The notes: generated by a model not told the origin, from the sequence alone. 19,701 nt of DNA from an uncultured archaeon (GCA_964590575.1 CAZPWM010000058.1:1-19701); one strand, 5' to 3'. Shown: positions 1-19,701, counted from the first letter of the stretch. Made by a program: numbers and translations.

Positions 1-1205
1 CTTCAGTGTATCAGGGTACCTATGAGGATGTAAAGAACGTTCATGAATTAGCTGATGCTGTCCTTGCAACACAACCTGAAGATTGGATAGCTCTTGAAAT
101 GAATTTCATGAAGTTTGAGGCTGATATGAGAAACTATCCCACAACAATGTATCAGACATCAACCATGGAGAGGATTCGTGAACTCATCGATAGTGATCCC
201 AGATTTGGTTTCTATGAGATCGTATTGAATGATCACCTATCAATACGTGCACAAGTAGATGGCGACACTGAGGAACGCATTCGCTGTATTGATAGAGGAA
301 TACAGATTGCGGAAAAGTTTGACGATAGGCTTCGAAAGGCACACCTTCTAATACAAAAAGGAAATATCATCATGAACTTTGACAGAAAGAAATCAAGAGA
401 GGCACTAGAACAAGCTTATCAGATTGTAGAATCCTCGTTAGGAATTCCTGCAAACTATGCAAATATCATATATTATCTGAGTATTTTGGATGCAATAAGA
501 GGTGAGTTTGACAGTGCTATCAGCGGTTGTCTGAAGGCTGTCACTATTCGAGAACGAGCAGGTTTGGAGAGTGGGAATGCCGCTTCTTTCCTTTCCATCT
601 TCTACAATGAAATAGGAGAGCCTGAATCAGGTCTTGAATGGGGTCGCATGGCTGAGGACCAGTTCAGTAGTAGACCATTTCTGATATATCACGCTATACT
701 ATTTCAAATTTGGTCACTCATTCTCCTGAAAAGACTCACAGAGGCTCAAGCCCTACTTGATTCATCACGAGAATCAATCTTGAAATCTGGAAATGAAGAT
801 CAACTTGCATGGTTTCATTTTGTATCAGGTGTTCTGGAAATGGAAGATGGTGATCTTCCTCTAGCATTAAGCAGTATTGAACAAGGGCTTAAAATCTATG
901 AACAACAGGAATCGGCACTTCTTATGGAAAACATCTTCTTGCATCAACTAGCGAAGATCGAAATCATGTCCTGCAAGACGGAAGAAGTAGTTTCTCCTTC
1001 ATTGGCAATTTTAGAAGAAAGAGCTTTGTCTGAGGATCTTCCTGGAGTTCTAGGACAGGTATTATTGCTCAAGGCTGATATTGCGCTTTTAAATAATGAT
1101 GAAGCACTTCTAAGAGAGATCATCCCACTGCTTAGAACACTTTCAGAGAGAAAGAATCTGCAGTTCTTGAAACCTTATTTTGAGAGCTTACAAAGAAAGC
1201 TATAG
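1..1205 (+). CDS. TPR/helical-repeat protein, 5'-truncated by the window edge
   Basis: The frame is open from base 3 to TAG at 1203-1205. It has repeated TPR-like helices (e.g. YYLSILDAIRGEFDSAISGCLKAVTI, FVSGVLEMEDGDLPLALSSIEQGLKI). The GTG at 6 is probably not the true start. Confidence 0.8.
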   Translation, partial: SVYQGTYEDVKNVHELADAVLATQPEDWIALEMNFMKFEADMRNYPTTMYQTSTMERIRELIDSDPRFGFYEIVLNDHLSIRAQVDGDTEERIRCIDRGIQIAEKFDDRLRKAHLLIQKGNIIMNFDRKKSREALEQAYQIVESSLGIPANYANIIYYLSILDAIRGEFDSAISGCLKAVTIRERAGLESGNAASFLSIFYNEIGEPESGLEWGRMAEDQFSSRPFLIYHAILFQIWSLILLKRLTEAQALLDSSRESILKSGNEDQLAWFHFVSGVLEMEDGDLPLALSSIEQGLKIYEQQESALLMENIFLHQLAKIEIMSCKTEEVVSPSLAILEERALSEDLPGVLGQVLLLKADIALLNNDEALLREIIPLLRTLSERKNLQFLKPYFESLQRKL

Positions 1206-1263
1206 CTATCACATTCTCTGTCCCAGACTATCTATCTGCCCCGTTAATAGAATGCGTGAATGT

Positions 1264-1374
1264 TCATGGCCAGACATCATAACTAGGCATTATGTCAATA
1301 ATTCCGAATCCTTCCAATACAAAGAAAATAACAACAATTAGAAGTATGATGATGATATCATATCTATCTAGTTT
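1264..1374 (-). pseudogene. Start-less paralog of the adjacent membrane micropeptide (KLDRYDIIIILLIVVIFFVLEGFGIIDIMPSYDVWP*)
   Basis: Manual translation aligns to 1442-1555 (DxxDI, VIF, LE, ID, PS, terminal WP). The position equivalent to the ATG is CTA (1369-1371), and an in-frame TGA lies just upstream at 1375-1377. Confidence 0.65.
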
Positions 1375-1410
1375 TCAAATCCTACTAATTGTGTAAGTGG
1401 ACTACTGCTA

Positions 1411-1426
1411 CTCGCTCAATAGCGAG
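1411..1426. terminator. Small hairpin between the two micropeptide copies
   Basis: CTCGCT-caat-AGCGAG forms a 6-bp stem, 15 nt downstream of the stop of 1442-1555 on the minus strand. Function is not established. Confidence 0.3.
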
Positions 1427-1441
1427 AATGGCTCGGTTAGG

Positions 1442-1555
1442 TTATGGCCAGCCCGCGCCAACACTGGGTATTAGATCAATAAAGTTCAGGCTTTCTAATA
1501 GTAAGAAGATAACGAGTATGACAAGTATTATGATAACGATGTCTTTCCAATCCAT
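1442..1555 (-). CDS. 37-aa single-pass membrane micropeptide MDWKDIVIIILVILVIFLLLESLNFIDLIPSVGAGWP
   Basis: ATG at 1555 is preceded by SD-like GGAGGGA, and the ORF ends in TAA at 1442-1444. It has a hydrophobic core and an adjacent paralog with synonymous-codon divergence. It is missing from the ORF track because it is short. Confidence 0.75.
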   Translation of the reverse strand: MDWKDIVIIILVILVIFLLLESLNFIDLIPSVGAGWP

Positions 1556-1698
1556 TTTTCACATCCCTCCAAAGGACGCGAACAATCATACGGTTTATGT
1601 GAGGTTCCTTAAAAATTCAGCTATATACTTGATGAATACAGTATCAGCAGCTGTATTTTTCTGGTTTGGCCAAAAATTCAGAAACTGGAAATGAGTCA

Positions 1699-1720
1699 AA
1701 CAAGAGGTTAATCTCTTGTT
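1699..1720 (-). terminator. Inverted repeat downstream of the C25 protease gene
   Basis: AACAAGAG-gttaat-CTCTTGTT is a perfect 8-bp stem ~22 nt after the stop at 1743. Confidence 0.4.
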
Positions 1721-1742
1721 CAATATCAGATAATCATTCCGC

Positions 1743-4700
1743 TTATCTCCTTCGTTTGACAACTACATATATCGCGACCACTATTCCTCCTACAATGAGT
1801 AGTATAAAGCCAATAGGGGGCGGTGGTGGGGGAACAATTATTGAAGCATTGAAAATCACTCCACCTATCAACCTGCATTTGATGAAGATGTCGACCATGA
1901 ACAAACGTCCTTCACCAGGTGTAATTGCTGAGAGTGAATCAAGAAATAGCGTGACCGTTTCATTTGCTTCCGCATCCATGGGTTGCGAGGAATAGTCTAG
2001 TATTGAGGCATTCCAAACATCTCCATAGTTTCCTAATTGAGTCACCTTAAGGTAGACATAGCTAGTAGTATTTGTTGGATTCCCAACATAGAACGTTCCC
2101 ATACCAGGCGAGCTCATTTCAATAACATAGACATTCTCGTATCCGAAGTTGTTGAATTTGTTTTCAGCTCTCTCCTCCGGATGGGACAGGTTTACCATCA
2201 AACAAGCACCTTGAGCGAGTATTGGTGTAAATGAGAAGGTTACACTATCTGTCATATCTTGGGTTGGAGAAACTGTAGCCTCTCCAATTGGCGTCCAAGA
2301 TACTCCGCCACCAAATGGTGCGTATGAAAGAGTCACTTTTGTGGAATCAGCCGCAATAATACCATTGTTATGTACGATTACTTCAATGTCGTGAACTTCA
2401 CCTTGAGTCATATAATCAACTTCAACACTATTTCGGTAAATAACAATGTCCGGACAGTCCCAGAAAACCTCTCCTGAGGCTATTGCTAATTCAGCCTGAT
2501 TGGAATGAGAAATCCATGGGTCTGGACCCTCGTTAGAAGCAAAACGTTGGAAACAATCAACTGTAGACCCAGTCGATGACCATACCAGCACATTCATGAA
2601 TCGAGTTGGTCCCGGCGAAACTTGCCAGTGAAACTCAGTTATTCCTGGTTCCAAATCAGCTATGTGATATCCATCAATAAGGATGGTTTTAGACTTGTCT
2701 ACAAGATATTCATTGAATGTGATTGTAAGTATATCATCTCCGATTATTGAATTCGGTGAAACAGAGATACTTGCGTCGCTATGAATTACCTCAATACTAC
2801 CAATATGAGGTCTGACATTGTGCTTTGTCACTGTCACATTGATATGTGAATAATCTGCTGAGGGATCTACATCAAAGATGGCTTGTCCATTAGGGTCGGT
2901 ATATCTGACCTCATAGACAAAAGCTCCTTGTTGAATGCAGACCTTTGCGAAGTTTATTGGGTCCCCAGTTTGTGAATTAATGACTGTCACAGCAAATCTT
3001 TGAGGATTTGCGGTTCCAACTGAATCTGGATAAGATACATTGATCCATGTAGGAGTCTCAGTCCATAGCTGGGTTTCAGGGTCTCCAAAGAGATGATATT
3101 CTTCAAATGTTGTTTCGACTTTATGTAGAGGATAATAATAATCATTAAAGGGCCAGATATAATCACTTCTTAACTCATTCCATCTCCCTTTAGCATATAG
3201 TTTACCAAAAATGAGCGCTGCTCCCATCTCATATATTGGCTGGTTATTTGATTCAAGGAATCCAGGCCAGAACGCCTGGATTAATCCATCCATCAATTGC
3301 GCACTCACGCCAGCGTAGGCAGGACGCGACGATGAAATTGCTGCAACAGCACCCCCTCCCTCCAGTCTTGTTATGTTCTCAGCATAACACTCATTCTCGT
3401 AGTCAGAGAATAGATTTGTGGTATCAAAAGGGGGTGCTCTCCCAAGGTACAAGTACACCTGATCAGTCTCCCCATCAAACCATCCTGTGTTACATGCAAT
3501 ACTAATTATCAGAGGTAACTTGTTTTCATTTGTCAGGTCTGAAAAGTACGACGTGTTGAAGAATGGGAACTCCCATCCCTCCGTTATATCTCTAACATGT
3601 GTATTTGGATAGACCATATTCTTGGACCCACCATGACCATAGTACAAGACAAAGAATCTTCCTTCGTTGATATTCGGCGTTATGTTGAGTCTTGCAATTT
3701 CTGTGAAATGTAAGGAAGTTTCAGGTGGAAGGTCATAACTCATGAGCCATCCATAATCAGAATAATATGGAAGAAGCGATTCAGAAACTAAAGTCTCATC
3801 AATAAGTATTAAGTCTTCAAGGTCTACGTCCGGATAGGGTATGGCCGGTGAAACATACCCATCTGATATACGGTCGTAATGCAGATAATCACATGAATAG
3901 TTGATGTGAACATTGTACCCGTGTGTACTATCATTCAGAGTATGTCTAATCCTCTCTAGAGCGGACATGAAGGGAAAGAGCACTTCCTCTATTCCATCTC
4001 GATTGTCGTCACCATCATTATCCCAGAAAGCTCCCGCGAAAAGTGCGTCGTTATAGAAAGATGAATCGACTGGAGGGTACTGTTCATATTGAAGAGTCTT
4101 ATTAACAATTATCTCAGCTTGTTCTACTGTATCAACTGACATTCGTCCGTAGATCATATCTGGAAGACACCCTTCTCCCTCGACGTTGAAATAGCCCAGG
4201 TCTGATGCGATGTAACCACAATCACCAAAAAAAAGACTCCAGGTGACAAATACGTCACTCATATGTTGAACCTCATAGGTGGTCGGAATATATTCGACAT
4301 CACCTAAAAGTAGGACATAAGTAGGTGCTGGATGCCCGTAATCATAGGCATCATTAATTATCTTCTTAACTTCGTCACGATCTCCTGCGTCTACAAGACA
4401 AACCTCTGAAGGAACTCCCTTTCGCTTCTTCCACTCTGCTAACCTATCAGCCTGAGACTTGAAATGATGAGTTGTGATGATCAAATACTCAGCATCACCC
4501 TGACAACCCTGTACTAGTGTTGCACACGTTGTAGCAAATCCCGGCTGAGCTGTATATGGGCTATTACAAGAGTCATAGTTCAACAGAATATTGAAAAGAA
4601 TACGCTCAAAAGCTACAGAGCATAGACGGTCTGCAACTGGCTGGATCTGTGCTGGAATGTTGTACTTCATCTTGATCACTATTTGGGAATACACCAACAG

Positions 4701-5417
4701 TGTTGTATTGACAGGGTTATATTGTACTGGATAGAAACTCAGTCCCAACAGTCTATGGCCTCTCATTATCAATGATGAGGAATTGAATCCTCCCTCTATA
4801 CTTGTTATGTTTCCTGGGAAGAAGGTGTCATTTGTGTAGATTGGACCGAAATCTATTGATGATACATCTAGACTTGATTCGTCTACTGCAAATGGAATAT
4901 CTTCAGTTGGGGATGGTGTGATGTTGTACCCGCTGGTGATGTCAGATGATGAAGCTAGAACTTCAATCGAAACATTGACATCGTGGGGAATCTCCACATA
5001 CTCGAACAGACATGGTAAAACTGGTGCACCCGGACTTTGTATTGAACTAGCTCCAGGCATTTCCAAGTCGTCATACACTGTTCCGTTTATTGTATTTTTA
5101 CCTCTCCAGAATCCATGGAAATCTGCCACAATCGTGATTCCCGACGTGTCTGAAATAGTAACATGGGCTTCAGCTGGAGTTCCAGGAGCTGAGGAGTCAA
5201 AAGAAACCCATAATCCAGCCTGCGACAGAACAGAACTCACTTCGCAGGGGCGACTTTGGAATGACTGATCAGAAAAATCTGGTTCTGCAATCTTCTCAGG
5301 ATTTGCTCTCATCAATACTTCAATCATTGTTATCGATGATATGACAATCATAGCACTAATGGAAACCGCTGTAAATTTCAGAAAAAGCTCCTTCCTATTC
5401 ACACAAGCCTTCTTCAT
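1743..5417 (-). CDS. Membrane-anchored C25-family (gingipain-like) cysteine peptidase, ~1224 aa
   Basis: It has an N-terminal hydrophobic segment and a propeptide-like region (PGAPVLPCLFEYVEIP). C25 motifs are YLIIT..LAEWKKRKG, YVLLLGD, PDMIYGR, catalytic YYGHG and ISIAC, and YHLFGDP. Ig/CARDB-like C-terminal domains are followed by a PPPPPP linker, a TM helix and KRRR. The start is placed at ATG 5417 because GGAGG lies 8 nt upstream; the ORF track starts at 5456. Confidence 0.88.
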   Translation of the reverse strand: MKKACVNRKELFLKFTAVSISAMIVISSITMIEVLMRANPEKIAEPDFSDQSFQSRPCEVSSVLSQAGLWVSFDSSAPGTPAEAHVTISDTSGITIVADFHGFWRGKNTINGTVYDDLEMPGASSIQSPGAPVLPCLFEYVEIPHDVNVSIEVLASSSDITSGYNITPSPTEDIPFAVDESSLDVSSIDFGPIYTNDTFFPGNITSIEGGFNSSSLIMRGHRLLGLSFYPVQYNPVNTTLLVYSQIVIKMKYNIPAQIQPVADRLCSVAFERILFNILLNYDSCNSPYTAQPGFATTCATLVQGCQGDAEYLIITTHHFKSQADRLAEWKKRKGVPSEVCLVDAGDRDEVKKIINDAYDYGHPAPTYVLLLGDVEYIPTTYEVQHMSDVFVTWSLFFGDCGYIASDLGYFNVEGEGCLPDMIYGRMSVDTVEQAEIIVNKTLQYEQYPPVDSSFYNDALFAGAFWDNDGDDNRDGIEEVLFPFMSALERIRHTLNDSTHGYNVHINYSCDYLHYDRISDGYVSPAIPYPDVDLEDLILIDETLVSESLLPYYSDYGWLMSYDLPPETSLHFTEIARLNITPNINEGRFFVLYYGHGGSKNMVYPNTHVRDITEGWEFPFFNTSYFSDLTNENKLPLIISIACNTGWFDGETDQVYLYLGRAPPFDTTNLFSDYENECYAENITRLEGGGAVAAISSSRPAYAGVSAQLMDGLIQAFWPGFLESNNQPIYEMGAALIFGKLYAKGRWNELRSDYIWPFNDYYYPLHKVETTFEEYHLFGDPETQLWTETPTWINVSYPDSVGTANPQRFAVTVINSQTGDPINFAKVCIQQGAFVYEVRYTDPNGQAIFDVDPSADYSHINVTVTKHNVRPHIGSIEVIHSDASISVSPNSIIGDDILTITFNEYLVDKSKTILIDGYHIADLEPGITEFHWQVSPGPTRFMNVLVWSSTGSTVDCFQRFASNEGPDPWISHSNQAELAIASGEVFWDCPDIVIYRNSVEVDYMTQGEVHDIEVIVHNNGIIAADSTKVTLSYAPFGGGVSWTPIGEATVSPTQDMTDSVTFSFTPILAQGACLMVNLSHPEERAENKFNNFGYENVYVIEMSSPGMGTFYVGNPTNTTSYVYLKVTQLGNYGDVWNASILDYSSQPMDAEANETVTLFLDSLSAITPGEGRLFMVDIFIKCRLIGGVIFNASIIVPPPPPPIGFILLIVGGIVVAIYVVVKRRR

Positions 5418-5718
5418 TCTAGGCTCCTCCATGCATGTACCAAAGGTCGGGTACAATTACTATTATTAATAAAACACATGATTGTGTGCATAAACCAGAA
5501 ATTGGATTGGAGCTGCGAGATTTAGATTCTGAAGTCTTGAAAGATTGTATCAGGTTGAAAATTAAGCTTTAATTATAACCTTGCCCCTAAGCCTACTCAG
5601 TCGTAAAACTGTGGAAAGGTTAGCGTACATATTCCTCTCCGATAACAATGAATTTCTTAAGATTCAACAGGAGATTAAGGATGTAATTCTAATCCCATGT
5701 TGCGGGAATACCACAGAC

Positions 5719-5865: not shown

Positions 5866-7068
5866 TCAAAATCTGACGTATGACACAAATGTGTCAGGCG
5901 GGAATATTGCTTCAAGTTTTCTCGCAGTGTCAGTATCACATCTAATCTCTTGTAGTGACCTTAGTAGTGTTGGCGGTGTAATCCCTCCAATCATCTCTGA
6001 GAGTTGAAATGCATTCAGAGAAATATCCGGTTTTGAAGTGCTCCTTTCAGCTTTCAGCTTTCCACCATCTGGAATGAGTGTGTATACTCCAGTGTTCCAA
6101 GGACATTGGTCATCAAACAACTCAATAGTGACTTGGTCTACTGTCTTCTCTGGAATTCTGATACTTTGGCAGTAGCCCTCAAGGTCAACAACCCGCATCA
6201 TCATTGAACCCAGCATAAATGATTCAGTTGTATGGATGTCCCTGAAGTAATGTCTAACAGGCACTTCTGCATCAGTCCACCATGTGATTTTACTTACGTT
6301 GGCGGAGTAATTCCTGACCAACTCAACGATTGAGGGGAAGATATCATCACTGGAATATCTTGTCGTGCCTACAGTCAGTTCAAGGGGCTGATTAGGAACA
6401 CCTCCTCTGAATCTAAACCAAACACAACCCACTGGACCATTCTTGTCCTCAAGTATGTGAACAATACCATTCTTCATGACATAATCCAAGAAATCAGTAT
6501 TTGAGAAGAACCTTGACCCTAACCTAGCCATTGACCTTTCAATTTGAATGATAGTTTCCCTGTCTTCCGGGTCTTTTGCCTCTCTCGAAATAATATCTTC
6601 TCTAGTCTTGCCTAAACTTATTTGATCTCTCTTGAAGACATGCTTTGCGCGTCTTTCTGCCACTGCGTATGAGAATTTTTCATAGAAGGGTCTATAGAAT
6701 GGGTCTAGTATTGAAAGACTAGCCTTCTCATCTCGCATTCTTGGAAATGAGATATCAAAGAGTTTCCTAACGAGCCCTTTTCTACGGTAAGCACCATCCG
6801 TTGTGACTGCCCATACTCCTCCAAATCGTACTGGAGCTCCCCTGATAATCTGCTCGTGTTCAGATGTTGTAAAGAAGGAGAGTGTTGCAACAACCTTGTC
6901 ATTGTCCACTGCAACATATGCGTAGTTCTCTTTTTCCGGATTATTCCATCGCTTTATCCAATCTTGCTTCAGATAGTCTTCGTAATCTGTAGCGGCTTCA
7001 AATGCTTTCCAAAGTACTCTGACTGCAGACTCACGGTCTTCTTCGCAAGCTTCCCTAACCTCAATCAT
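5866..7068 (-). CDS. Eis-like GNAT acetyltransferase (GNAT domains plus SCP2-like C-terminus)
   Basis: 400 aa. It has the acetyl-CoA-binding motif VWAVTTDGAYRRKGL, the motif LDPF..PFYEKFSY, and Eis-type C-terminal motifs MMRVVDL and DDQCPWNTG. Confidence 0.88.
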   Translation of the reverse strand: MIEVREACEEDRESAVRVLWKAFEAATDYEDYLKQDWIKRWNNPEKENYAYVAVDNDKVVATLSFFTTSEHEQIIRGAPVRFGGVWAVTTDGAYRRKGLVRKLFDISFPRMRDEKASLSILDPFYRPFYEKFSYAVAERRAKHVFKRDQISLGKTREDIISREAKDPEDRETIIQIERSMARLGSRFFSNTDFLDYVMKNGIVHILEDKNGPVGCVWFRFRGGVPNQPLELTVGTTRYSSDDIFPSIVELVRNYSANVSKITWWTDAEVPVRHYFRDIHTTESFMLGSMMMRVVDLEGYCQSIRIPEKTVDQVTIELFDDQCPWNTGVYTLIPDGGKLKAERSTSKPDISLNAFQLSEMIGGITPPTLLRSLQEIRCDTDTARKLEAIFPPDTFVSYVRF

Positions 7069-7226
7069 AGAGGAATTGCTGAATGGAAGTCTTCAAGTGC
7101 TTTTCGTATTGCGCGAATTACTTGGAGAATTCATGTCTAATCTTTTCCACCAGTTCCTCGCTCAAATCCGAATCTGTCGCGACGCGTTTCAGGTTGGAAA
7201 GAAACTCAAACAATAAGTCCCAAGAT

Positions 7227-9785
7227 TCATCTTGTGCTCTGAATGAAGGACGTCTGCTTCTTTTGCTGCTCCTCCCATTTTTTGCGTTCAGCTCGAAGTT
7301 GAAAGAGATCTACGTCCTTGTATATGATGCCTTCCTCTCCTTTGGGGACATTTCTTTCAATGCGTTCCTTTTCTGGCGTATAGATTAACGAGCCGCCAAA
7401 TTCCGCCACATTTGCGAAGAAGCAGTATGCGTAGATGGACCTTCTAGCATCAAAATGTGCGGCATTGAAATCTTCAGTAACTGGAGTAAATGCAGGATTT
7501 ATCACTAAATCTACTGGATGGTCCGAGTTCTTCAGCTCCACTCTAAGATCCATATCAAGAAAATCGCGACAGATTGCAATTGCAATCCTTCCATACTCCG
7601 TGTTGCATATAATGACTCTCTTGGAATCCTTGGCTGTTTCTATTCTCTCTATGAATCTCTTACCCTCAATGTTGATAATCGCAGGAATATGCTTCTCTTG
7701 TTCCCAGAGAATGCCTTCAGGTCCAAAGACTCTGCAGATATTGCGCTTGGATTCTTTGTCATGGTATGAACCTGGTATGATATACATTCCAAATTTCTTA
7801 GTGAGCTCTGTTAAATCTTGGACAAATTGGTCAAAGCTGAGGTCGATTGTCATCTCTGGGAAAATAAGGAGATTGACTCCTTCTGAGTGAGCTTTCTCTA
7901 TCATACTTCTCATCATCAATCTTATTGGTTCAATCGATTCACATCGAAGTCCAATGCGTCCATCCACCTTCTCCTCATACAGTTCATTCAGAATATCACC
8001 TTCCCTCGAGAGTCCCATCTGTGCTATACCCACTCTAAACTTGCCTCTCTCTGATCTCTCTGTCCCCTTAAGCAGGTCTCTGTGAACCATTTTGTACTTT
8101 GATTTTCTGGAATCTATACTTGATTCAATTCCGAGAGTTTCCACAGTCTTCTGTACCATTCTTTCAAGCAGGTCATTTAAGTTGGTGAGGTCGACCATCT
8201 CCTGCGTTGATGTTTCCTTTTTGATGATTGATTCCCATTTCTGCTGTTGATGTTGAAGAAGAGTAATCTCACTTTCCACAGTCTTAGCTAATCTGTACAG
8301 ACCTTTTTCATCCGCTAATTCTTTTGCCTTTGCCATCAATTTCCGTGCTTGTCGAAATTCGAAAGTGACTATTGCTAGCTTTGACTGAAGTAGATAGGTT
8401 TCTACGATGAGTGGATGTGAAGCTTGTTCTTTAGCAATCTCTACGAGACGTTGAGTAAGATCTTTGATTTTCTGGAGAATTTCATCCTCTCCAGTGGCTT
8501 TCAATTCAATTAGTAACAAGTCGCATAGGTGAATCATAGCAGTGACAGTCACAGTGTGATCAGCGATATCTTCCTCAACTACCCGCTCAAGAATTTCTTC
8601 AGCCCTCACTCTGTCGCGAGTGCGACCACTTTTCTTGAGGAAGAGAGCATTGGAGACCCGATATTGTAGGTTGACCACAATGCTATCTGATTCTTCATTT
8701 ACCTGTTCAAGTTTTATCAGGTATTCTTTAGCTAGGTTAGCATCGAAACCCTCCAAGGCTAACCCTACAAGCTCACTAAGAACTGATGCAATCAATCTGG
8801 TATTTCCCATATCTTCAGAGATGGCTAAGCTGCGTTGGTAATACTCTAATGCTATCTCAGGATTGTTCTTTCTTCTAAAACACTCACCGATATTAGTAAG
8901 CGTAAGAGCGATTCCTTCTTTGGCTCCCATATCTTCGTATATGAGTAGACTACGCTGATAGAACTCCAAGGCGTAATCTAGTTCACCCTTTAAGCTGTAT
9001 ATCTCACCTAAATTATTGAGCGCAAGAGCAAACTCTGGTCCAATGCTAAGATGTTCCTGGATAGCCAAGCTTTTGTTGTAACACTTAGCAGCTTCGTTTA
9101 GGTTTCCCTTCAATCTGAAAATGACACCGACGTTGACAAGTGACACTGCAACATCTTGCTTGGAAGCCACCTTCTCTTTCATTGCTAAACTCTGTTGATG
9201 ATATTCCAACGCCTTGTCTAACTCCCCCTTTGATGCACTGATGTTACCAAGGTTATTCAGTACTCTGGACATTGCACTCTCATCTTTCAGTTCCTCGCAG
9301 ATTGCTAGACTTTCCTTGTAGTATTCTGTAGCCAAATCGAGATTTCCCTTTGTCCAAAATACTAGTCCAATATTATTGAAGGCTCCAGAAATACCCTTTC
9401 TATCTTCAAGCTTCTCTTTAATTCTAAGACATTGTTGATGACATTCTAGTGCTTGTTCTAAGTCCCCCCTGTACCAATGAATGACCCCCGTCTGTGAAAG
9501 TAAATTTCCTTTTCGTTTCTGAAGTTCTTCATCTTCTTCAACCTGTTCTAATCCAATAGAAGAGATCAGCATCTCAGCCTTCTCTACCGTATCAAGACCT
9601 TCATCTAGCCTACCCGAACGCCATGAAATTTCTGCTTTAAGAATCAGGGCATCTAACGTCATTAGAGGGTCATTGAGCTCTTCATTTACAGAAAGAGCCC
9701 GAATGATTTCAAGAGCCTCTTCGTATTCTCCTTTCTCGCTTAGGTTCCTAGCGCGAGAAAGCTCTTCCAGAACAGAATCTTTCAC
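7227..9785 (-). CDS. TPR-repeat protein fused to a C-terminal carbon-nitrogen hydrolase (nitrilase-fold) domain
   Basis: Tandem ~40-aa TPRs (NNIGLVFWTKGNLDLATEYYKESLAI etc.) are followed by a helical linker. The C-terminal domain (~8042-7227) has RVGIAQ and the triad IFPE (7854-7856), QEKH (7692-7694) and AICRD (7569-7571). GTG start at 9785. Confidence 0.88.
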   Translation of the reverse strand: MKDSVLEELSRARNLSEKGEYEEALEIIRALSVNEELNDPLMTLDALILKAEISWRSGRLDEGLDTVEKAEMLISSIGLEQVEEDEELQKRKGNLLSQTGVIHWYRGDLEQALECHQQCLRIKEKLEDRKGISGAFNNIGLVFWTKGNLDLATEYYKESLAICEELKDESAMSRVLNNLGNISASKGELDKALEYHQQSLAMKEKVASKQDVAVSLVNVGVIFRLKGNLNEAAKCYNKSLAIQEHLSIGPEFALALNNLGEIYSLKGELDYALEFYQRSLLIYEDMGAKEGIALTLTNIGECFRRKNNPEIALEYYQRSLAISEDMGNTRLIASVLSELVGLALEGFDANLAKEYLIKLEQVNEESDSIVVNLQYRVSNALFLKKSGRTRDRVRAEEILERVVEEDIADHTVTVTAMIHLCDLLLIELKATGEDEILQKIKDLTQRLVEIAKEQASHPLIVETYLLQSKLAIVTFEFRQARKLMAKAKELADEKGLYRLAKTVESEITLLQHQQQKWESIIKKETSTQEMVDLTNLNDLLERMVQKTVETLGIESSIDSRKSKYKMVHRDLLKGTERSERGKFRVGIAQMGLSREGDILNELYEEKVDGRIGLRCESIEPIRLMMRSMIEKAHSEGVNLLIFPEMTIDLSFDQFVQDLTELTKKFGMYIIPGSYHDKESKRNICRVFGPEGILWEQEKHIPAIINIEGKRFIERIETAKDSKRVIICNTEYGRIAIAICRDFLDMDLRVELKNSDHPVDLVINPAFTPVTEDFNAAHFDARRSIYAYCFFANVAEFGGSLIYTPEKERIERNVPKGEEGIIYKDVDLFQLRAERKKWEEQQKKQTSFIQSTR

Positions 9786-11979: not shown

Positions 11980-12480
11980 ATGGTTCGTCAAAGACTCACT
12001 CCGTCATCAAGTTTTACACAAGAACTGATTTCATTTCCTGAAGGTGAAGTTATCAAGAAATGTATCGAATGTGGAGTTTGCACTGCGAGCTGTGCTATAG
12101 CTTCTTTGTCAAATAGCAATCCACGAAAGATTGTACAAAAGATATTGGTTGGAGCCAGAGAGCCTGTCTTGAATAGTGGTCAACACTGGTCGTGCATGAC
12201 CTGTCAGTTTTGTGAGAGTCGGTGTCAACACGGAGTTAGTCTTGCTGAAGTGTTTCGAGCTGTACGGATGGTTGCTATTCGGGATGGAAGAATCCCACTA
12301 GAAATCCAGACCGCGGCACAGACAATTATCAAAGACGGATGGTTACTCAAGGAATCCTACACTGACTATGTCGCTGATGAACGAGGCCAATTGGGCCTTA
12401 GTTCTCGGCTTAGTTGGAACAGTCGCTACACAGATCAGATTGGTTCAAAGTATTTCAAATCTGGAGGAAAGAGCGGGTGA
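11980..12480 (+). CDS. hdrC: Heterodisulfide reductase subunit C-like (copy 1, divergent)
   Basis: Two 4Fe-4S motifs, CIECGVCTASC and W.CMTCQFCESRC, plus NPRKIV; coupled to the following hdrB. Confidence 0.88.
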   Translation: MVRQRLTPSSSFTQELISFPEGEVIKKCIECGVCTASCAIASLSNSNPRKIVQKILVGAREPVLNSGQHWSCMTCQFCESRCQHGVSLAEVFRAVRMVAIRDGRIPLEIQTAAQTIIKDGWLLKESYTDYVADERGQLGLSSRLSWNSRYTDQIGSKYFKSGGKSG

Positions 12481-13373
12481 AAGAACTACTCCTGTTTCGG
12501 GGATGCACTACACCCGTGCACCTACCATCATACGAAGCAGCAACGCTTCTTGTGTTGAAGAAACTAGGAGTGAGAGTTTCACCGCTGAATAACGCCAACT
12601 GTTGCGGAGCTCAGAATATTGAAACATTGAACTCAAAGGCGCATTATGCTCTCTGTGGACGCCTTCTTGCCATGGCGGAAGCCCAGGGAAAGGATATCCT
12701 GACCATTTGTGGGTCTTGCTCGACATCTTTGAAACAAGCAAAGAAAATCTTGGATGCTGACAAGAATATCCAACGAGAAGTGAACAAGCTTCTAAAGACT
12801 GAAGGTCTCAAGTATAGCGGATCTGTTGAAGCAAAACATCTTCTTGATGTCTTTCAAGAGGACATAGGTTTATTGAAACTCAAGAACGCAATAACTAACC
12901 CGTATCCAAGTATTAGGATTGCTGCTTACTATGGATGCCACGCTGTGCGACCGCTTGGGATTGAATCAATTGGTAAAACAGAAACACCGGACATTATTGA
13001 CAAGATAATCACAATTGCAGGCGGGGTGTCTGTTTACTATGATGGGAAGTATCAGTGTTGTGGTGCTCCACTTCTAGTTTTTAATGAACAAATCGCTACT
13101 AAAATTGGAAGGAAGAAAATTACCAATATCCGATCATCTCGTGCAGAGTGTATTGTGACATCTTGTAGTTTCTGTACTATCCAATTAGCCCAAGTCCAAT
13201 TCATTGGTAGAGTCGGGACGAAACGAATACCAGTCCTGACATTGCCTCAATTTCTTGGCCCTGCTTTGGGAATACAAGATGAATCACTTGGTTTGCAAAT
13301 GAATCGAATTAACCCTAGTCAGATAACAGAACTATTAGTTGAATCGAGGAGTGACAATGGAATTTACGGATAA
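12477..13373 (+). CDS. hdrB: Heterodisulfide reductase subunit B-like (copy 1, divergent)
   Basis: Two CCG domains (FRGC..NCCG..CGSC; YYGCH..QCCG..CSFC). The start is GTG 12477, overlapping the hdrC stop (GTGA), with GGAGG at 12463-12467. Confidence 0.9.
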   Translation: MKELLLFRGCTTPVHLPSYEAATLLVLKKLGVRVSPLNNANCCGAQNIETLNSKAHYALCGRLLAMAEAQGKDILTICGSCSTSLKQAKKILDADKNIQREVNKLLKTEGLKYSGSVEAKHLLDVFQEDIGLLKLKNAITNPYPSIRIAAYYGCHAVRPLGIESIGKTETPDIIDKIITIAGGVSVYYDGKYQCCGAPLLVFNEQIATKIGRKKITNIRSSRAECIVTSCSFCTIQLAQVQFIGRVGTKRIPVLTLPQFLGPALGIQDESLGLQMNRINPSQITELLVESRSDNGIYG

Positions 13374-13917
13374 ATCCAAACCTTACAGAGGAGACTTTCC
13401 AGTCCGAGATGAGGATGTGAATAGTGATTTCAAGTATGAGGTTGCTAACCAGGTCGGAGGAGAAGGTCTTCTACGTTGCTTGAAATGTGGGGCTTGCAGT
13501 GGCGGATGTCCTGTGGGTTCGGTGATTGATTACAGACCTCGAAAGGTCTTGGGGAATGTACTGCTTGGTCTGAAAGACGAAGTTCTCTCAACCGACCAAA
13601 TCTGGTTATGTGCCGCTTGTTTCACATGCGAGGAGCGATGCGTTCAGCAGGTCAACTTTACTGATGTGGTCACTGTTCTTCGGAATATGGCAAGTAAAGA
13701 AGGTAACGCAGCTCCCGGCTACGTGAAAATGGCAGAGATGGTCATGAATAATGGGCGTGTGAGTACAAGAACCGGACTTGTCGACAAGATGCGTGAAACC
13801 CTAGGACTACCCGTTCTTCAGGAACCTGACATAGAGCAACTCAGGAAAATCATGCAAGCTGCTGGGTTTTATGAAGTGATAGAAGCCAACAAGAAAAAGG
13901 AGGTAGACTCAGAATGA
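13357..13917 (+). CDS. hdrC: Heterodisulfide reductase subunit C (copy 2)
   Basis: Motifs [26 protein letters not shown] and LRNMA. ATG 13357 is preceded by GAGGAGTGA. Confidence 0.92.
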
Positions 13918-14810
13918 AGAAAGCACTCGCGTGGGGTTGTCTAGTTCCAACTCGACGGTCTCTGATTGGATATGAAGCAGCCACAAGGAAGGTCTTGGAT
14001 CATCTAGGTATTGAAACAGTAGACATTCCCAACGAGACCTGCTGTGCTCCGTTTTGGATGCAGTCACTTGACCTCACAACATCAATCGCTATGGCTGCAA
14101 GGAATCTTGCCAAAGCAGAAGAGATGGGTCTTGATCTCTTGACTCCTTGCAGTGGTTGTTTCCACTCATACAAACGAGTGAACCATGTTCTAGAGACCTA
14201 TCCCGATATGCATGAGCGTGTAGATGACATCTTACGAAGTGTGGGGTTGAGTTATGAAGGAAAGGTCGAATCACGACATATTGTAGATTTCTTGTATACT
14301 GATATTGGTGCGGCAGAGCTTAAACGGAAATCCACCAGAGACCTGAGTAGTATCTCTATCGGCCTTAGGTATGGATGTCACATGCTCAAACCTCACGAGC
14401 TGCTTAACATCGAGTATTCTGAACGACCTACCTTTGCAGATGAACTCATTGAGCAGTTTGGTGTTAATAGTGTACAATACGCTGGTCGTCACAGATGTTG
14501 TGGAGGTCTCTTGAGAGGAGTGCAGGATGACGTTGCAGATCGTATCCTTCATGAGCGTCTTGTAGACGCAAACAATGCTGGAGTTGATGGTATCGTTACT
14601 GTCTGTTCACTCTGTCATCTACAGCACGATATGGGCCAGAGGAGTATCAAACGAAAATTCGGAATGGATGACCTCGAGATTCCAGTTCTGCATTTCCCAC
14701 AAATTCTTGCTCTTGGGTTTGGCTACTCCCCTGAAGAACTTGGACTCGACCTTCATACTGTGAAGACGGATAAACTTGTTGCGAAAATTATGGGGGGTGG
14801 TAGTAGATGA
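13914..14810 (+). CDS. hdrB: Heterodisulfide reductase subunit B (copy 2)
   Basis: Motifs WGC..TCCAP..CSGC and [29 protein letters not shown] overlaps at both ends. Confidence 0.92.
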
Positions 14811-17800
14811 GCGACGCCAACTTGCGGATTGGAGTGTTTGTCTGCAACTGTGGACTAAACATAGCTGGGACGGTTGACTGTGAGGCTGTAGCAGAGTATG
14901 CGGCGCAACTACCTGATGTTGCCCATTCTGTTGATTTGTTGTTTGCATGTTCAGATGATGGACAAGCGAATATCAAGAAAGCAATAAAGGAACATAGTCT
15001 TAATCGTGTGGTTGTTGCATCATGTACACCTCGAACTCATGAACCTGTATTTCGAGCATGCGTTGAAGAGGCTGGACTTAACAGATACTTGTATGACCAG
15101 GTCAACCTTCGTGAACATGTCAGTTGGGTTCATATGGATGACCATGACTTAGCTACGATGAAGGCTCAGGAACTTGTCGCTATGGCTGTTGAACGTGTTA
15201 GGTACCTCGAGCCCCTAGAGAGAAAGGCCGTTGATGTCATTCAAAGTGCTGCTGTTATAGGTGGTGGTGTCGCTGGGATATCAGCCGCTCTGGACCTTGC
15301 CAATGCAGGATTTGAAACTCACCTCATTGAGAGTCGTCCAACAATTGGTGGACAGATGGCGTTGTTAGACAAGGTGTTTCCACAAAATGACTGTGCAATC
15401 TGCATACTTGGACCTATCATGTCGAAAGTTGGCCAGCATCCTAAAATCAATCTCATGACCTATAGCGAGTTAGATAGCGTTGAGGGGTATGTTGGAAACT
15501 TCAGGTTGAAGGTTCGAAAGAAATCACCTTTCATTGATTATGAAAAATGCAATGGTTGTGGTGACTGTGAAGGAGTCTGTCCTGTTAGTGTTTCAAGCGA
15601 ATATTCGTTTGGTATTGCTACTCGAAAGGCGGCCTATCGACCATTCCCACAAGCAGTACCTAACAAGTACACCATCGACAAACGAGGAACATCACCTTGT
15701 AAGATTGCATGTCCCGCTCACGTGAATGTACAGGCTTTCATCACACTCCTCAAGGAAGAGAGGTTCGATGAAGCTTTGGAGATTTACCGTAAGAACTCTC
15801 CATTCGCAGGCACCCTGGGTCGAGTCTGTACAAATCCCTGTCAGGTGGACTGCGAACGCGGGAAATATGATGAAGCGATTAGCATACGAAATCTTCACAG
15901 ATTCCTAGCTGATTATGAACGAGCTAATGGTGAAGTTAAGGTAGAATCTGTTCAGCTTGACAATAAGAAGAAGAAGAAATCTGTAGCAGTTGTTGGTGCA
16001 GGTCCTTCTGGATTGGCATGTGCCTACGATCTTGTCAAGAAGGGTTACCCTGTAACCATCTTCGAGGCGAGGAAGGAGGCGGGGGGTCTCCTCCGTTGGG
16101 GCATTCCAGAATATCGTCTACCAAGAGATGTGCTCCGAGATGAAGTTGATATTGTCAAGCAGCTCGGAGTCACAATCCAGACTGGAACAAAGGTCGACTC
16201 TATTAAGGAACTCAAGGATCAAGGCTTCAAAGCTGTTTTTGTTGCTACAGGAGCTCCTTCAAGTCGCAAGATGAAAGTAAAAGGTGAGAATGCCAAAGGT
16301 GTCCATCATGCACTTGAATTCCTTGACCGAGTCAATAGCGGCAAGACTGTACCAATTGGGAAGCATGTTGCAGTAATTGGAGGAGGTAACGCTGCTATTG
16401 ACGCTGCTAGAACTGCAAAACGATTAGGCGCTAGCAAAGTCACAATTGTCTATAGACGTTCTCGAGAAGAGATGCCCGCAATCGCGAGCGAAGTCGATGA
16501 GGCTGAGAACGAAGGAACAAAGATTGAATTCCTTGCGACGCCCGTTGAGATCTTAGAATCTGATAAGACTGTTTCAGGGATGAAATGTGTGCGGATGCGT
16601 CTTGGAGCTCCTGACGATTCAGGCAGAAGACGCCCTGTTCCAATCCCTAACTCTGAGTTCAAGATACAGGTTGACACTATCATTATCGCAGTCGGTCAAG
16701 AGGTCACGCCCGATGCTTTGATGAAAGGCCTTGAGGCCACTATGTGGGGCACTCTTGAGGTAAATCCTACTACTTTGGAAACCAATGTCAAGGGTGTCTT
16801 TGGAGGGGGCGATGTAGTCAGCGGAGGGGCTTCTGCAATTGAAGCCGTAGCTACTGGGAAAGAAGCTGCAAAATCTATTGACCGCTTTCTTATGGGTGAA
16901 GATCTCATCGAAGGCCGTGAAGAGGTTTTGATGCCAATTGAAGACATCGAGGTTGACGAAGCTGCTATGAAGATGAGGTTTGCTCCTGCAATGCGAACAA
17001 TAAGCATGGCAAAACGAAAGAGTACCTTCGCAGAGGTCGAGCTTGGATTCAATGAAGCAATAGCCATTGCAGAAGCGGAAAGGTGTCTGAGTTGCGGTGT
17101 TTGTTGTGAGTGCGAGAAGTGTGTTGAAGCCTGCAAGCTCGGTGCTGTTAACCACTCACTACAGGATGAGATTGTCGAGCTCAATGTAGGCACAATCATC
17201 GTTGCTACAGGCTTTAAGGTCCATGATCCATTTGAAACCCGAGAGTTTGGATATGGAACCTTTCAGAACGTAATTACAAATGCTCAACTTGAGAGACTTA
17301 CTAATGCAGCAGGTCCGACGCATGGAAAACCAAAACGCCCCTCTGATAATACTATACCACGAAAAGTTGCTTTCATACAATGTGTTGGGTCGAGGGATAG
17401 AAGGCTTCATCGAGACTACTGCTGCTATATCGGTTGTGAGAACTCTCTAAAACAAGCAATCCAGATTAAGGAGAAGTACCCAAAGACAGAAATCACCGTA
17501 TATGCTATGGATGTCAGGACTCACGGTCTCGGATACGAAGGTCTCTACAGACGAGCTCGTGAGATGGGCGTGGTTGTCGTCAAAGGAAGACCTTCCGAAG
17601 TCGAAGAAATCCCTGAAACTAAATCACTAATAGTGCTGGCTGAGGATCTATACACTGGTGCGCGTTTAGAAACAACAACTGACCTTGTAGTCCTTGCAAC
17701 TGCACTTCTACCAAACGACGACAATGCAGAAATGGCTCGGAAGCTAAAGATTTCAACAGGCGAATATGGTTTCTTGATGGAGGCTCATCCCAAACTCCGT

Positions 17801-18187
17801 CCAGTAGACTCATTCCAGGATGGTGTGTTCCTCGCTGGAGCTGTTCTTGGACCTATGGATATTCCAAAGGCAGTCGCCTATGGAAAAGGTGCAGCTGCTG
17901 GAGCTCAGGCTCTGATGGCTCCTGGTGTGTTTTATGTAGAACCCATCTATGCAGAGATTGACACAGATCTATGCTTTGATTGTGATCTCTGCACTGATGT
18001 CTGCCCATATGGTGCGATTACAGGGACCGGTGAAGAACGTCGGGTTATGTTCGAGCTATGTCAAGGATGTGGGACTTGTGCTGCTGCATGTCCAAAGAAC
18101 GCCATAGACATGCGACATTATCGTAGACAGCAACTATTGCCGCAGATATTAGCTGCTGCATCTGTTCAAGGAGAGTTGGTACATTGA
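14807..18187 (+). CDS. hdrA: HdrA with inserted GltD/NfnB-like NAD(P)H-flavin module (HdrL-like), 1126 aa
   Basis: HdrA N-terminus ([20 protein letters not shown]), GGGVAG and [13 protein letters not shown]. The insert at ~15692-17095 has [36 protein letters not shown] and YRR. HdrA then resumes (ATGF, QCVGSRD, HPKLRP) and ends in C-terminal ferredoxin motifs. Confidence 0.92.
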
Positions 18188-18615
18188 CGCGAAAGAGATT
18201 CGAACCAAAAATTGTTGCCTTTACGTGCAACTGGTGTTCCTATGGGGGTGCTGATCTTGCTGGTATATCTCGTATCCAGCATCCACCGAATGCGAAGGTT
18301 ATCCGGCTCATGTGTTCTGGACGGCTGGACCCTGTAATGGTGATTGAGGCTTTCAAAGGCGGAGCCGATGGCGTGATGGTTACGGGTTGCCACATCGGGG
18401 ACTGTCACTATTCAACTGGCAACTATCGTACACAGATCCGTTTTGACGCACTTCAGATAGCGATGAAGACGCTCGGTCTACACCCCGAACGACTCAAACT
18501 TCTCTGGGCTAGTGCCTCAGAAGGTCAACAATGGGCCGAAGGGATAACCGAGATGACCGAGTCGCTTCGGCCATTGGGCCCTAATCCACTCAAAGCAGGA
18601 GGTGAAGCAAAGTGA
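18184..18615 (+). CDS. mvhD: MvhD-family [2Fe-2S] subunit
   Basis: Motifs FTCNWCSYGGADLAG, MCSGRLDP, GADGV.VTGCHIGDCHY and WASASEG. The TTG start overlaps the hdrA stop (TTGA). Confidence 0.93.
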   Translation: MTRKRFEPKIVAFTCNWCSYGGADLAGISRIQHPPNAKVIRLMCSGRLDPVMVIEAFKGGADGVMVTGCHIGDCHYSTGNYRTQIRFDALQIAMKTLGLHPERLKLLWASASEGQQWAEGITEMTESLRPLGPNPLKAGGEAK

Positions 18616-19701
18616 CAGTAGCAGGAGATAAAGTAGATTTTAGTTCAATGAAACCTTCGGAAACCGCTCTGATCATCGGAGGTGGAGTTGCGGGTATGCA
18701 GGCAGCACTTGACTTAGCGGATCAAGGCTATCAAGTGGTCTTAGTTGAGAAAACCCCATCCATCGGGGGAGTGATGGCTATGCTGGACAAAACTTTTCCA
18801 ACCTTGGATTGCTCTGCTTGTATATTAACACCCAGACTAAGTGAGGTTTCTCGTCATCCCAACATTAAGTTGCTGACCTATAGCGAAGTCACCGGAATTA
18901 CAGGAGAAGCTGGAGATTTCAGAGTGAGGGTCCTAAAAAAGGCTCGAAAGGTTTTGGAGGACAAATGTTCAGGGTGTGGGGAATGCGTACCTCATTGCCC
19001 CATCCAAGTGAAGAATGAGTTTGACCAAAACCTCGGATACAGGAAGGCGATTTACGTCGGTTTTCCCCAGAGCACTCCTTTAGTATACACGATTGACAGT
19101 GAAAACTGCATCAAATGTGAGCTTTGCGTTAAATCATGTGAGAGAGAAGCTATCGATCTCACGATGGAGGATGAAGAGATAGAGGTTTCTGTAGGCGCCA
19201 TTGTTATTGCGACAGGCTATGAACTATTTGATGTGTCCAAATATCAAAGACTTGGTTATGGACGATTCAAGAATGTCATCAATGCACTGGAGTATGAACG
19301 ATTGATCAATGCCGCAGGTCCCACTGGTGGCAATCTCATGAGGCTTAGTGATGGCAAGATTCCAAAGTCTATCGGATTTGTTCAATGTGTAGGGGCTCGA
19401 GATGTCAAGATGGGTGTGCCCTATTGCAGCAGAGTCTGTTGCATGTATGGAATCAAAAACGCAGTAATGGCAAAAGAACTTCAACACGATAATGTCAAGA
19501 ATGCGACAGTGTATTATGCTGATATTCGAGCATATGGGAAAGGCTTCGAAGAATTTTACACTATGTCCAAAGAACGGTTTGGTGTTAGGTTCATTCGAGG
19601 CAGGGTAGGAGAAGTAGAGGAAGATTCTAAGACCAAGAACATCACTGTCTGGGTTGAAAACACAGAAACTGGAGAGTTCCTCAGGGACGAACATGAACTA
19701 C
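18612..19701 (+). CDS. hdrA: Second HdrA lacking the N-terminal domain; 3'-truncated by the window
   Basis: Not in the ORF track. GTG 18612 overlaps the mvhD stop, with SD GGAGGTGA upstream. Manual translation is open to the window end: ALIIGGGVAGMQAALDLA, LDKTFPTLDCSAC, CSGCGECVPHCP, CIKCELCVKSC, QCVGARD, YCSRVCCMYGIKNA. Confidence 0.92.
   Translation, partial: MTVAGDKVDFSSMKPSETALIIGGGVAGMQAALDLADQGYQVVLVEKTPSIGGVMAMLDKTFPTLDCSACILTPRLSEVSRHPNIKLLTYSEVTGITGEAGDFRVRVLKKARKVLEDKCSGCGECVPHCPIQVKNEFDQNLGYRKAIYVGFPQSTPLVYTIDSENCIKCELCVKSCEREAIDLTMEDEEIEVSVGAIVIATGYELFDVSKYQRLGYGRFKNVINALEYERLINAAGPTGGNLMRLSDGKIPKSIGFVQCVGARDVKMGVPYCSRVCCMYGIKNAVMAKELQHDNVKNATVYYADIRAYGKGFEEFYTMSKERFGVRFIRGRVGEVEEDSKTKNITVWVENTETGEFLRDEHEL

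Follow-up and report, generated by a model that had tools for sequence, protein, structure and literature searches.

The DNA considered here, called the window at its full length of 19,701 nucleotides, is a stretch of one strand from an uncultured archaeon (GCA_964590575.1 CAZPWM010000058.1:1-19701) of the Thorarchaeota, within the Asgard group, whose 3.4-Mb assembly (G000) is 91% complete. Two short open reading frames (ORFs) lie on the minus strand about 70 nucleotides apart, directly downstream of a gene for a cysteine peptidase of the C25 family. The first of them, copy 1, occupies 1442..1555 and encodes 37 residues (MDWKD...GAGWP) from an ATG start codon at 1553..1555 to a TAA stop, and the second, copy 2, is an open frame at 1264..1374 of 36 codons plus a TGA stop (K-LDRYD...DVWP). 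A preliminary description of the window had proposed this pair of paralogous minus-strand frames as two small genes. Both frames are present as quoted there, and copy 1 begins with ATG, whereas copy 2 has no start codon. The peptidase gene immediately upstream, which that description did not mention, turns out to be the decisive context. The features discussed below are as follows.

1442..1555, minus strand: micropeptide copy 1, full peptide MDWKDIVIIILVILVIFLLLESLNFIDLIPSVGAGWP, with one predicted transmembrane helix and then the acidic tail ESLNFIDLIPSVGAGWP

1264..1374, minus strand: micropeptide copy 2, reading K-LDRYDIIIILLIVVIFFVLEGFGIIDIMPSYDVWP-TGA and matched by an external profile at E = 1.5e-9; probably a start-less relic

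1566..1570, minus strand: Shine-Dalgarno sequence GGAGG, 10 nucleotides before the copy-1 ATG

1571..1582, minus strand: conserved leader segment TCGCGTC-N-TT-N, which runs into the Shine-Dalgarno sequence to form a 17-nucleotide block

1600..1623, minus strand: promoter-like block TAGCTGAATTTTTAAGGAACCTCA, with a TATA-like TTTTTAA at 1609..1615, about 54 nucleotides before the ATG

1743..5456, minus strand: C25-family cysteine peptidase of about 1237 residues, recognised by Pfam, directly upstream of copy 1

3..1205, plus strand: TPR-like gene, convergent and truncated by the window start (Pfam TPR_12, 1.5e-7)

By sequence comparison, the two copies are homologous to each other and are the sole members of their family in the G000 assembly. 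With copy 1 as the query against the whole 3.4-Mb genome, copy 2 was found at E = 0.0013 and the next match at 0.99. A profile of 19 relatives from other genomes, built without any G000 sequence, was run against the 98,818 six-frame open frames of at least 20 residues in G000 and retrieved only copy 1 (E = 6.3e-17) and copy 2 (1.5e-9), the next best frame standing at 0.058. Over 34 codons, the copies differ from each other at a proportion of 0.669 for synonymous sites (pS) and 0.265 for non-synonymous sites (pN), and the synonymous codon differences pointed out in the preliminary description (GAC/GAT, TTA/TTG, and CCC/CCT) are visible in the codons.

Searches of relatives returned 23 family ORFs across 14 Thorarchaeota genomes, and frame-keeping homologues are therefore present in 13 Thorarchaeota genomes other than G000, as well as in metagenomes. 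In a survey at the level of the taxonomic family (E <= 0.01), 13 of 86 genomes carry a member; by genus, carriers are 8 of 27 genomes in g1 together with G000 itself, 4 of 17 in g3, and none of 41 in the other 14 genera. Outside that taxonomic family, a search of 400 genomes of the phylum yielded just three weak matches (E 2.9e-4 to 6.4e-4), and these were set aside as hydrophobic noise, two of them lying within frames of 243-247 residues and one containing two TGA codons. A HMMER scan of 1.84 billion representative proteins gave 26 clusters at E <= 1e-3, of 37-80 residues and the same build, whose source names, where given, are 'hypothetical protein' and 'Candidatus Thorarchaeota archaeon', which bears out the early guess of an Asgard host. 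No Pfam family matches either copy at E <= 0.01. In NCBIfam, the best E-value for 13 members was 0.0077, and one member reached 10.7 bits with the TatA/TatE model, below its cut-off of 53.9. The best score in the ESM Atlas was 0.80, to unnamed clusters and below a meaningful level. Among the papers listed on Thorarchaeota gingipains and on Asgard small transmembrane proteins, none deals with the family according to title or abstract, although supplements might list such ORFs. On these searches, this is a small-protein family that had previously gone unnoticed and has no relation to a curated family, in line with the statement in the preliminary description that the family was not recognised.

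The members share a recognisable layout. The consensus begins M-[DE]-x-[KR]-[DR] and continues with a run of 15-21 Ile, Leu, Val, and Phe residues, measured over 42 sequences and predicted to form a transmembrane helix, as expected from the hydrophobic core seen at first. After the helix follows L-[ED]-x2-[GN]-Φ-Φ-D-Φ-I-P (Φ, hydrophobic residue), in which Pro is present in at least 90% of the rows and Asp is sometimes Asn. The tail behind this D-Φ-I-P motif has 3 to 25 residues and varies in both sequence and length. The preliminary description had singled out an ending PS-x(3-4)-WP and had proposed a search for homologues that retain the frame and the WP before the stop; the variable tail and the frame are indeed kept, but a terminal WP, or WP plus one residue, is limited to G000, G093, G004, and four metagenomic clusters. 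Other tails end in PPP, in GFT, or in a longer ...DYFRYRS-like stretch, and 19 of 42 sequences have Pro as their last residue. The family signature, as far as it can be read from the alignment, is thus a transmembrane helix, L-[ED]-x2-G-Φ-Φ-D-Φ-I-P, and a variable tail rather than a terminal WP.

The number of copies per genome varies, with two in G000, G004, and G093, three in G095, four in G002, and two free copies plus one fused copy in G026. Two members deviate from the common layout. The free copy nearest the G026 peptidase, G026_1 (L034:7476-7706, minus strand), shares its first 32 residues with G026_2 exactly and then diverges into VWIFPFVPGHENGLP, without the D-x-I-P motif, a sign of a copy damaged by an indel or changing fast. 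A two-helix variant with a TTG start, about 70 residues, and the end ITDLIPGTGKGGW is encoded in G005:C57 (L081:1069-1359, plus strand; also in L090), and it keeps the promoter block, the Shine-Dalgarno sequence, and the C-terminal ITDLIPGTG.

The frames are under purifying selection. In all 20 pairs compared, pN is smaller than pS, in agreement with the protein-level selection suggested earlier, and differences by codon position follow the order 3 > 1 > 2 in 19 of the 20 pairs, the recent pair G026_1/G026_2 showing 3 > 2 > 1. Copy 1 and G093_1 are 78% identical (pS 0.517, pN 0.134), and between carriers the synonymous sites are saturated (pS 0.5-0.98). The start codons of the 23 ORFs are ATG in 12, TTG in 8, GTG in 2, and CTA in 1.

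The signals in front of the frame are conserved as well. The GGAGG sequence is invariant in 14 of 14 aligned leaders, at 7-10 nucleotides before the start. Among 15 copies, the 17-nucleotide leader block TCGCGTC..TT.GGAGG has a mean pairwise identity of 0.787 and the 24-nucleotide upstream block TAGCTG(G/A)ATTTTTAAGGAAC-TCA one of 0.828, compared to 0.497 for the spacer between the two blocks and 0.357 for the 40 nucleotides further upstream. The promoter-like block occurs once in the 3.4-Mb genome at <=4 mismatches, indicating a locus-specific conserved element rather than a general consensus or repeat. Its composition and spacing fit an archaeal promoter with a transcription factor B recognition element (BRE) and TATA box and a 5′ leader of 25-30 nucleotides, and a promoter function can be predicted for it by analogy. 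A scan for bacterial-type promoters and terminators, which is unsuited to archaea, gave nothing beyond chance. Single-base indels between the Shine-Dalgarno sequence and the start imply that this stretch of the leader is non-coding, and a coding interpretation of the upstream conserved block (IAGFLRN...) was ruled out, stops and indels breaking the frame between loci. Several leaders (window 1556-1570, minus strand, and those of G093, G095, and G086) read GGAGG(A/G)-ATG-TGA, that is, a start-stop pair directly after the Shine-Dalgarno sequence and just before the real start, at a spacing too short for normal initiation.

Conservation at this locus could in principle arise with no translation of the minus-strand frame at all, through a non-coding RNA, a regulatory region at the 3′ end of the peptidase gene, or the 101-residue plus-strand ORF 1389..1694 that lies over copy 1. 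Such an explanation would account for upstream DNA that is conserved more than the synonymous sites of the ORF, and it could call on the absence of the exact copy-1 sequence from 15 billion predicted proteins, but it is very hard to reconcile with codon-periodic substitutions in the minus-strand frame, with a frame that has stayed open in 23 copies, 22 of which have canonical starts, and with the invariant Shine-Dalgarno sequence at its fixed spacing. Moreover, RNAalifold found 0 pairs, and hence no consensus RNA structure, in 14 leaders, Rfam gave no match in window positions 1000-2000 at E <= 1, the plus-strand ORF lacks conservation (in G093, the closest relative, antisense frames reach 38-40 residues at most), and orthologues were predicted by gene callers in other assemblies. 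We consider an untranslated element very improbable. Collectively, the comparative data make it highly probable that the micropeptides form a real and translated, Thorarchaeota-specific family of small membrane proteins linked to the C25 peptidase.

Copy 2 differs from all other members in its start. Ahead of its only internal Met there is no ATG, GTG, or TTG, hence its absence from the ORF listing, and copy 2 is the only one of the 23 family ORFs in this condition. At the start position stands CTA (1369..1371), two codons past an in-frame TGA, and in place of a full Shine-Dalgarno sequence there is the weaker GTAGGA (1380..1385). Orthology connects the second copies of G000, G093, and G095, which have the upstream word GTAGCAGTAGT or a near variant in common, together with the same spacing between Shine-Dalgarno sequence and start; those of G093 and G095 are intact, with GGAGGA or AGGAGA followed by TTG. 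Contigs from two public sequencing runs, either of which may be the source sample of the assembly, reproduce the copy-2 ORF and its start unchanged (X1 1100-1522 and X2 1148-1373, depth ~4-6), making an assembly error at the start unlikely. Salt-marsh sediment is a habitat of this population, five public DNA runs (X1-X5) containing 58-84% of the sampled words, and no RNA run is listed among the holders. Since CTA mismatches the initiator anticodon at two positions, translation of copy 2 is unlikely, and read-through of the TGA or an upstream start was rejected, because there is no start upstream and further stops are present. A point on the other side is that, of the three orthologues, copy 2 has the shortest non-synonymous branch (0.096 versus 0.162 and 0.169), which excludes long-standing decay; either the loss is recent or an unconventional initiation persists. 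With slightly better than even confidence, we regard copy 2 as an old tandem paralogue whose TTG start became CTA and whose Shine-Dalgarno sequence weakened, and which is probably no longer translated. Between the two copies, window positions 1411-1426 (minus strand) contain a perfect 6-bp hairpin, CTCGCT-ATTG-AGCGAG, and the one position at which run X1 was seen to differ (1420 T>A) is within the hairpin loop; the spacer between the copies folds no better than shuffled sequences (z = -0.48).

The neighbouring enzyme, encoded at 1743..5456, has the Peptidase_C25 domain (PF01364, 5.5e-51, 174.4 bits against a cut-off of 23) and the Propeptide_C25 domain (PF08126, 8.6e-16, 58.1 bits against a cut-off of 22). 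From the N-terminus, it is arranged as a hydrophobic segment, the propeptide, the catalytic domain, and a C-terminal transmembrane anchor followed by KRRR. Residues H608 and C655 are invariant in 11 peptidase orthologues, and the Cys aligns with that of ACVNG in gingipain R. With a catalytic domain, a His/Cys dyad, and a propeptide, the predicted protein qualifies as a C25 peptidase.

The association of this peptidase with the micropeptide is strict. Every family member lies directly downstream of a gene for a membrane-anchored C25 peptidase. Peptidase matches at E <= 1e-20 occur in 26 of the 86 family genomes, and at 13 of the 14 best peptidase loci (E <= 1.1e-271), at least one micropeptide follows directly downstream on the same strand; at the 14th (G007), the contig breaks off after the first 10 codons of an ORF whose beginning resembles that of cluster P0026. 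At 16 weaker or partial peptidase loci, which are weaker paralogues, fragments, or regions inside much larger frames, no profile match was obtained at E <= 1. In G019, the TPR orthologue is kept without peptidase and without micropeptide, and another gene stands in their place. It could be deduced from the loci with and without the peptidase that the micropeptide comes and goes with a single clade of C25 peptidases, and the saturation of synonymous sites between carriers indicates that this linkage has survived long divergence.

The TPR-like gene (about 490 residues in relatives) flanks the cassette everywhere on its downstream side, with orthologues at 60-83% identity. Its paralogues make up a very large family, and a single genome can have as many as 14 matches (E <= 1e-10). 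Copies of it also stand beside distant C25 paralogues that have no micropeptide, suggesting that the pairing of C25 and TPR genes is older than the micropeptide. In G018:C124 (L089:5698-6047, minus strand), where the C25 paralogue is a more distant one (42% identity), two small hydrophobic ORFs of about 55 residues each come after it in place of a family member, to which they are unrelated; this arrangement may be analogous or due to chance.

The same synteny could also be a matter of shared locus ancestry if the micropeptide were an independent small membrane protein with a membrane-perturbing, toxin-like, or stress-related role. All carriers belong to two genera of one taxonomic family, and hence part of the synteny may simply be inherited; the separate promoter and Shine-Dalgarno sequence and the repeated duplication and decay of copies would suit such a protein too. 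Type I toxins likewise have fewer than 60 residues, one very hydrophobic helix, an own promoter and leader, and frequent duplicates. They differ from the micropeptides in that the latter are confined to one locus in each genome, next to the same enzyme gene every time, with no other copy anywhere in G000. Presence and absence track the peptidase over a patchy distribution, and the linkage has lasted through the divergence noted above. A type I toxin-antitoxin pair is also not indicated by the Rfam search of 1000-2000 or by any conserved antisense frame, although an unannotated antisense RNA is possible. An in-frame fusion to the peptidase, described next, is hard to square with a toxin. On balance, an independent role is improbable.

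The peptidase of G026 (P0029, 1284 residues, named 'C25 family cysteine peptidase' by NCBI) does not end at its anchor. The anchor and the basic …SSNRSR are succeeded by another hydrophobic helix and by LLDWLMITDYIPYIGNAGG-stop, and this fused tail can be aligned to the free copy G026_2 (LLDWFRITDYIPAIGEGG…) in protein as well as in DNA sequence. Fusion of two separately encoded proteins is classical evidence of joint function. A search for further fusions with the C-terminal 200 residues of the G026 protein returned only this protein and an ordinary relative of 1241 residues (706-2247 residues covered). The fusion fixes the relative topology, with the ectodomain outside, followed by the anchor helix, a cytoplasmic loop, the micropeptide helix, and the motif outside, and this layout is that expected for a partner with its N-terminus in and its C-terminus out (N-in/C-out) beside the anchor. 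The distribution of charges in 42 sequences agrees with it; the N-terminal flank contains 73 Lys and Arg, and the first 15 residues after the helix contain 7 Lys and Arg against 106 Asp and Glu, which by the positive-inside rule indicates an N-in/C-out orientation. For copy 1, AlphaFold2 with a 21-row alignment predicted a helix at residues 3-22 with a predicted local distance difference test (pLDDT) score of ~92 and an irregular tail with a score of 76 falling to 56. A complex prediction of peptidase residues 300-1237 with the micropeptide scored 0.00 in two runs with unfolded controls and thus speaks neither for nor against a contact.

Taken together, we give a probability of roughly 0.5 to the reading that copy 1 is a functional membrane partner of the C25 peptidase, in which we infer the topology, the contact, and the effect. 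The short charged N-terminus of copy 1 would be on the cytoplasmic side, its helix of about 20 residues would cross the membrane, and the acidic L-E-x2-(G/N)-Φ-Φ-D-Φ-I-P segment and the short lineage-variable tail would be exposed on the outer face. The gene, presumably expressed from its own promoter and ribosome-binding site, is inherited, duplicated, and lost together with the peptidase gene. The helix of the micropeptide may pack antiparallel against the C-terminal anchor helix of the peptidase, with the acidic juxtamembrane segment presented to the base of the protease ectodomain, and the micropeptide would then be an accessory or regulatory subunit of small size, by which the protease is positioned, stabilised, or gated. 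It has what is expected of such a subunit, namely fewer than 50 residues with a single transmembrane helix and a gene conserved beside that of the partner.

Several observations weigh against a membrane partner of this kind. The fused G026 copy reaches only E 0.007-0.03 with the family profile, and the fusion stands as one event, seen in one metagenome-assembled genome of 81% completeness. If both hydrophobic segments of the G005 variant span the membrane, its motif would be on the opposite membrane side. The micropeptide has a separate and strongly conserved promoter, and the two genes thus need not be co-expressed. Finally, tail type changes 5 times on the peptidase tree, against a mean of 5.6 after shuffling. 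This tree comprises 11 full-length peptidases, those of G004, G007, and G086 being left out as short or cut. It departs from the genus labels (window 1743-5456, loci L055-L057), with G000 (g1) as the sister of G094 (g3) at a support of 98/97. The closest relative of copy 1 is instead G093_1, and this discordance suggests an exchange of cassettes or a sorting of old tandem copies. Because the tail type does not follow the tree and copy 1 and its peptidase have different closest relatives, there is no sign of co-diversification.

The uncoupling of tail and peptidase would fit better if the micropeptide were a dedicated substrate or precursor whose outer tail is cut by the C25 enzyme at Φ-(D/N)-Φ-I-P, with a lineage-specific peptide released as a signal or surface cue or, alternatively, a transpeptidation of the PorU type. 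Features of this sort are the hypervariable tail, variable in length too, behind a conserved N-terminal part and D-x-I-P, the differing tails of tandem copies in birth-and-death turnover, and the frequent C-terminal Pro; the catalytic dyad is intact, the protease would be on the same membrane side as the tail, and the fusion is compatible with self-processing too. According to PMC8545088 and PMC4560394, PorU is a C25-family enzyme that works as a sortase, and C25 enzymes can transpeptidate dedicated C-terminal signals. The neighbour enzyme resembles gingipain and PorU in its C25 propeptide and catalytic domains and its His/Cys dyad, but what anchors it is its own C-terminal helix and not a type IX secretion system domain, and it scores 53.9 bits with the NCBIfam PorU model, far below the cut-off of 420. 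Nor does the micropeptide have the motif, transmembrane helix, and basic C-terminal tail of a sorting signal of the sortase or PorU type; its motif comes after the helix, whereas sorting signals place it before. Characterised gingipains cleave after Arg or Lys, residues that the copy-1 tail does not contain. In addition, close pairs show no concentration of change in the tail, as the 7 differing sites between G002_1 and G002_2 are spread over helix and tail.

Systems based on ribosomally synthesised and post-translationally modified peptides (RiPPs) or on peptide signals have a comparable layout of a leader plus a variable core with an adjacent protease, but no modification enzyme, exporter, or receptor gene is found in the conserved neighbourhood of the micropeptide. 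AgrD and AgrB of Firmicutes are the precursor of a peptide signal and a membrane cysteine endopeptidase. They share with the present pair a short precursor with a membrane-associating N-terminal part, an adjoining membrane cysteine endopeptidase, and a lineage-variable segment; they differ in that there is no homology, that the protease here is a C25 enzyme of clan CD with a large ectodomain, and that no receptor kinase or regulator gene belongs to the conserved neighbourhood. A role as substrate or precursor, taken broadly, is thus possible but doubtful, and the specific form of it, in which the micropeptides would be membrane-tethered precursors or handles that are cut or transpeptidated at Φ-(D/N)-Φ-I-P, appears decidedly unlikely. 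If it were true, short, fast-evolving, Pro-capped peptides (LIPSVGAGWP in G000) might act as cell-to-cell signals or surface cues, or cargo might be attached to a lipid-embedded peptide anchor, and either would be an Asgard peptide-processing system without a described counterpart.

The reading as a partner of the peptidase has its closest analogues in CydX, AcrZ, KdpF, and MgrB, which are small single-pass accessory or regulatory membrane proteins of bacteria. The micropeptide is like them in having 30-50 residues, one transmembrane helix, and a gene that lies beside that of a large membrane or membrane-anchored partner and is often unannotated, and it is like MgrB in its predicted N-in/C-out orientation. 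It is unlike them in sequence, in its archaeal (Asgard) host, and in its tandem copies with variable tails, and the partner presumed for it is a C25 cysteine protease, an extracellular one. To our knowledge, no micropeptide subunit has been described for any C25 surface cysteine protease. The present evidence does not force any new mechanism.

The remainder of the window contains genes without relation to the micropeptides. On the minus strand, 5866-9785 encodes a 400-residue GNAT acetyltransferase with an SCP2 domain and an 852-residue protein with TPR repeats and a C-terminal carbon-nitrogen hydrolase domain. On the plus strand, 11980-19700 holds a heterodisulfide-reductase-like operon, with two HdrC-like/HdrB-like pairs (Fer4 and CCG domains), a flavoprotein fusion of 1126 residues that is HdrA-like, an MvhD/FlpD-like subunit, and one more flavoprotein.

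Work on archaeal metagenome-assembled genomes routinely overlooks small membrane proteins, and the family described here is a cleanly supported Asgard example, whose expression signals are conserved, whose frames are under purifying selection, and whose genetic partnership is strict. It offers a concrete two-gene system, for which the natural fusion in G026 is a ready-made construct design. Gingipain-family proteases at the cell surface are thought to let sediment archaea feed on detrital protein, and a dedicated micropeptide partner or substrate, if true, would add a previously unknown layer of control to these surface proteases.

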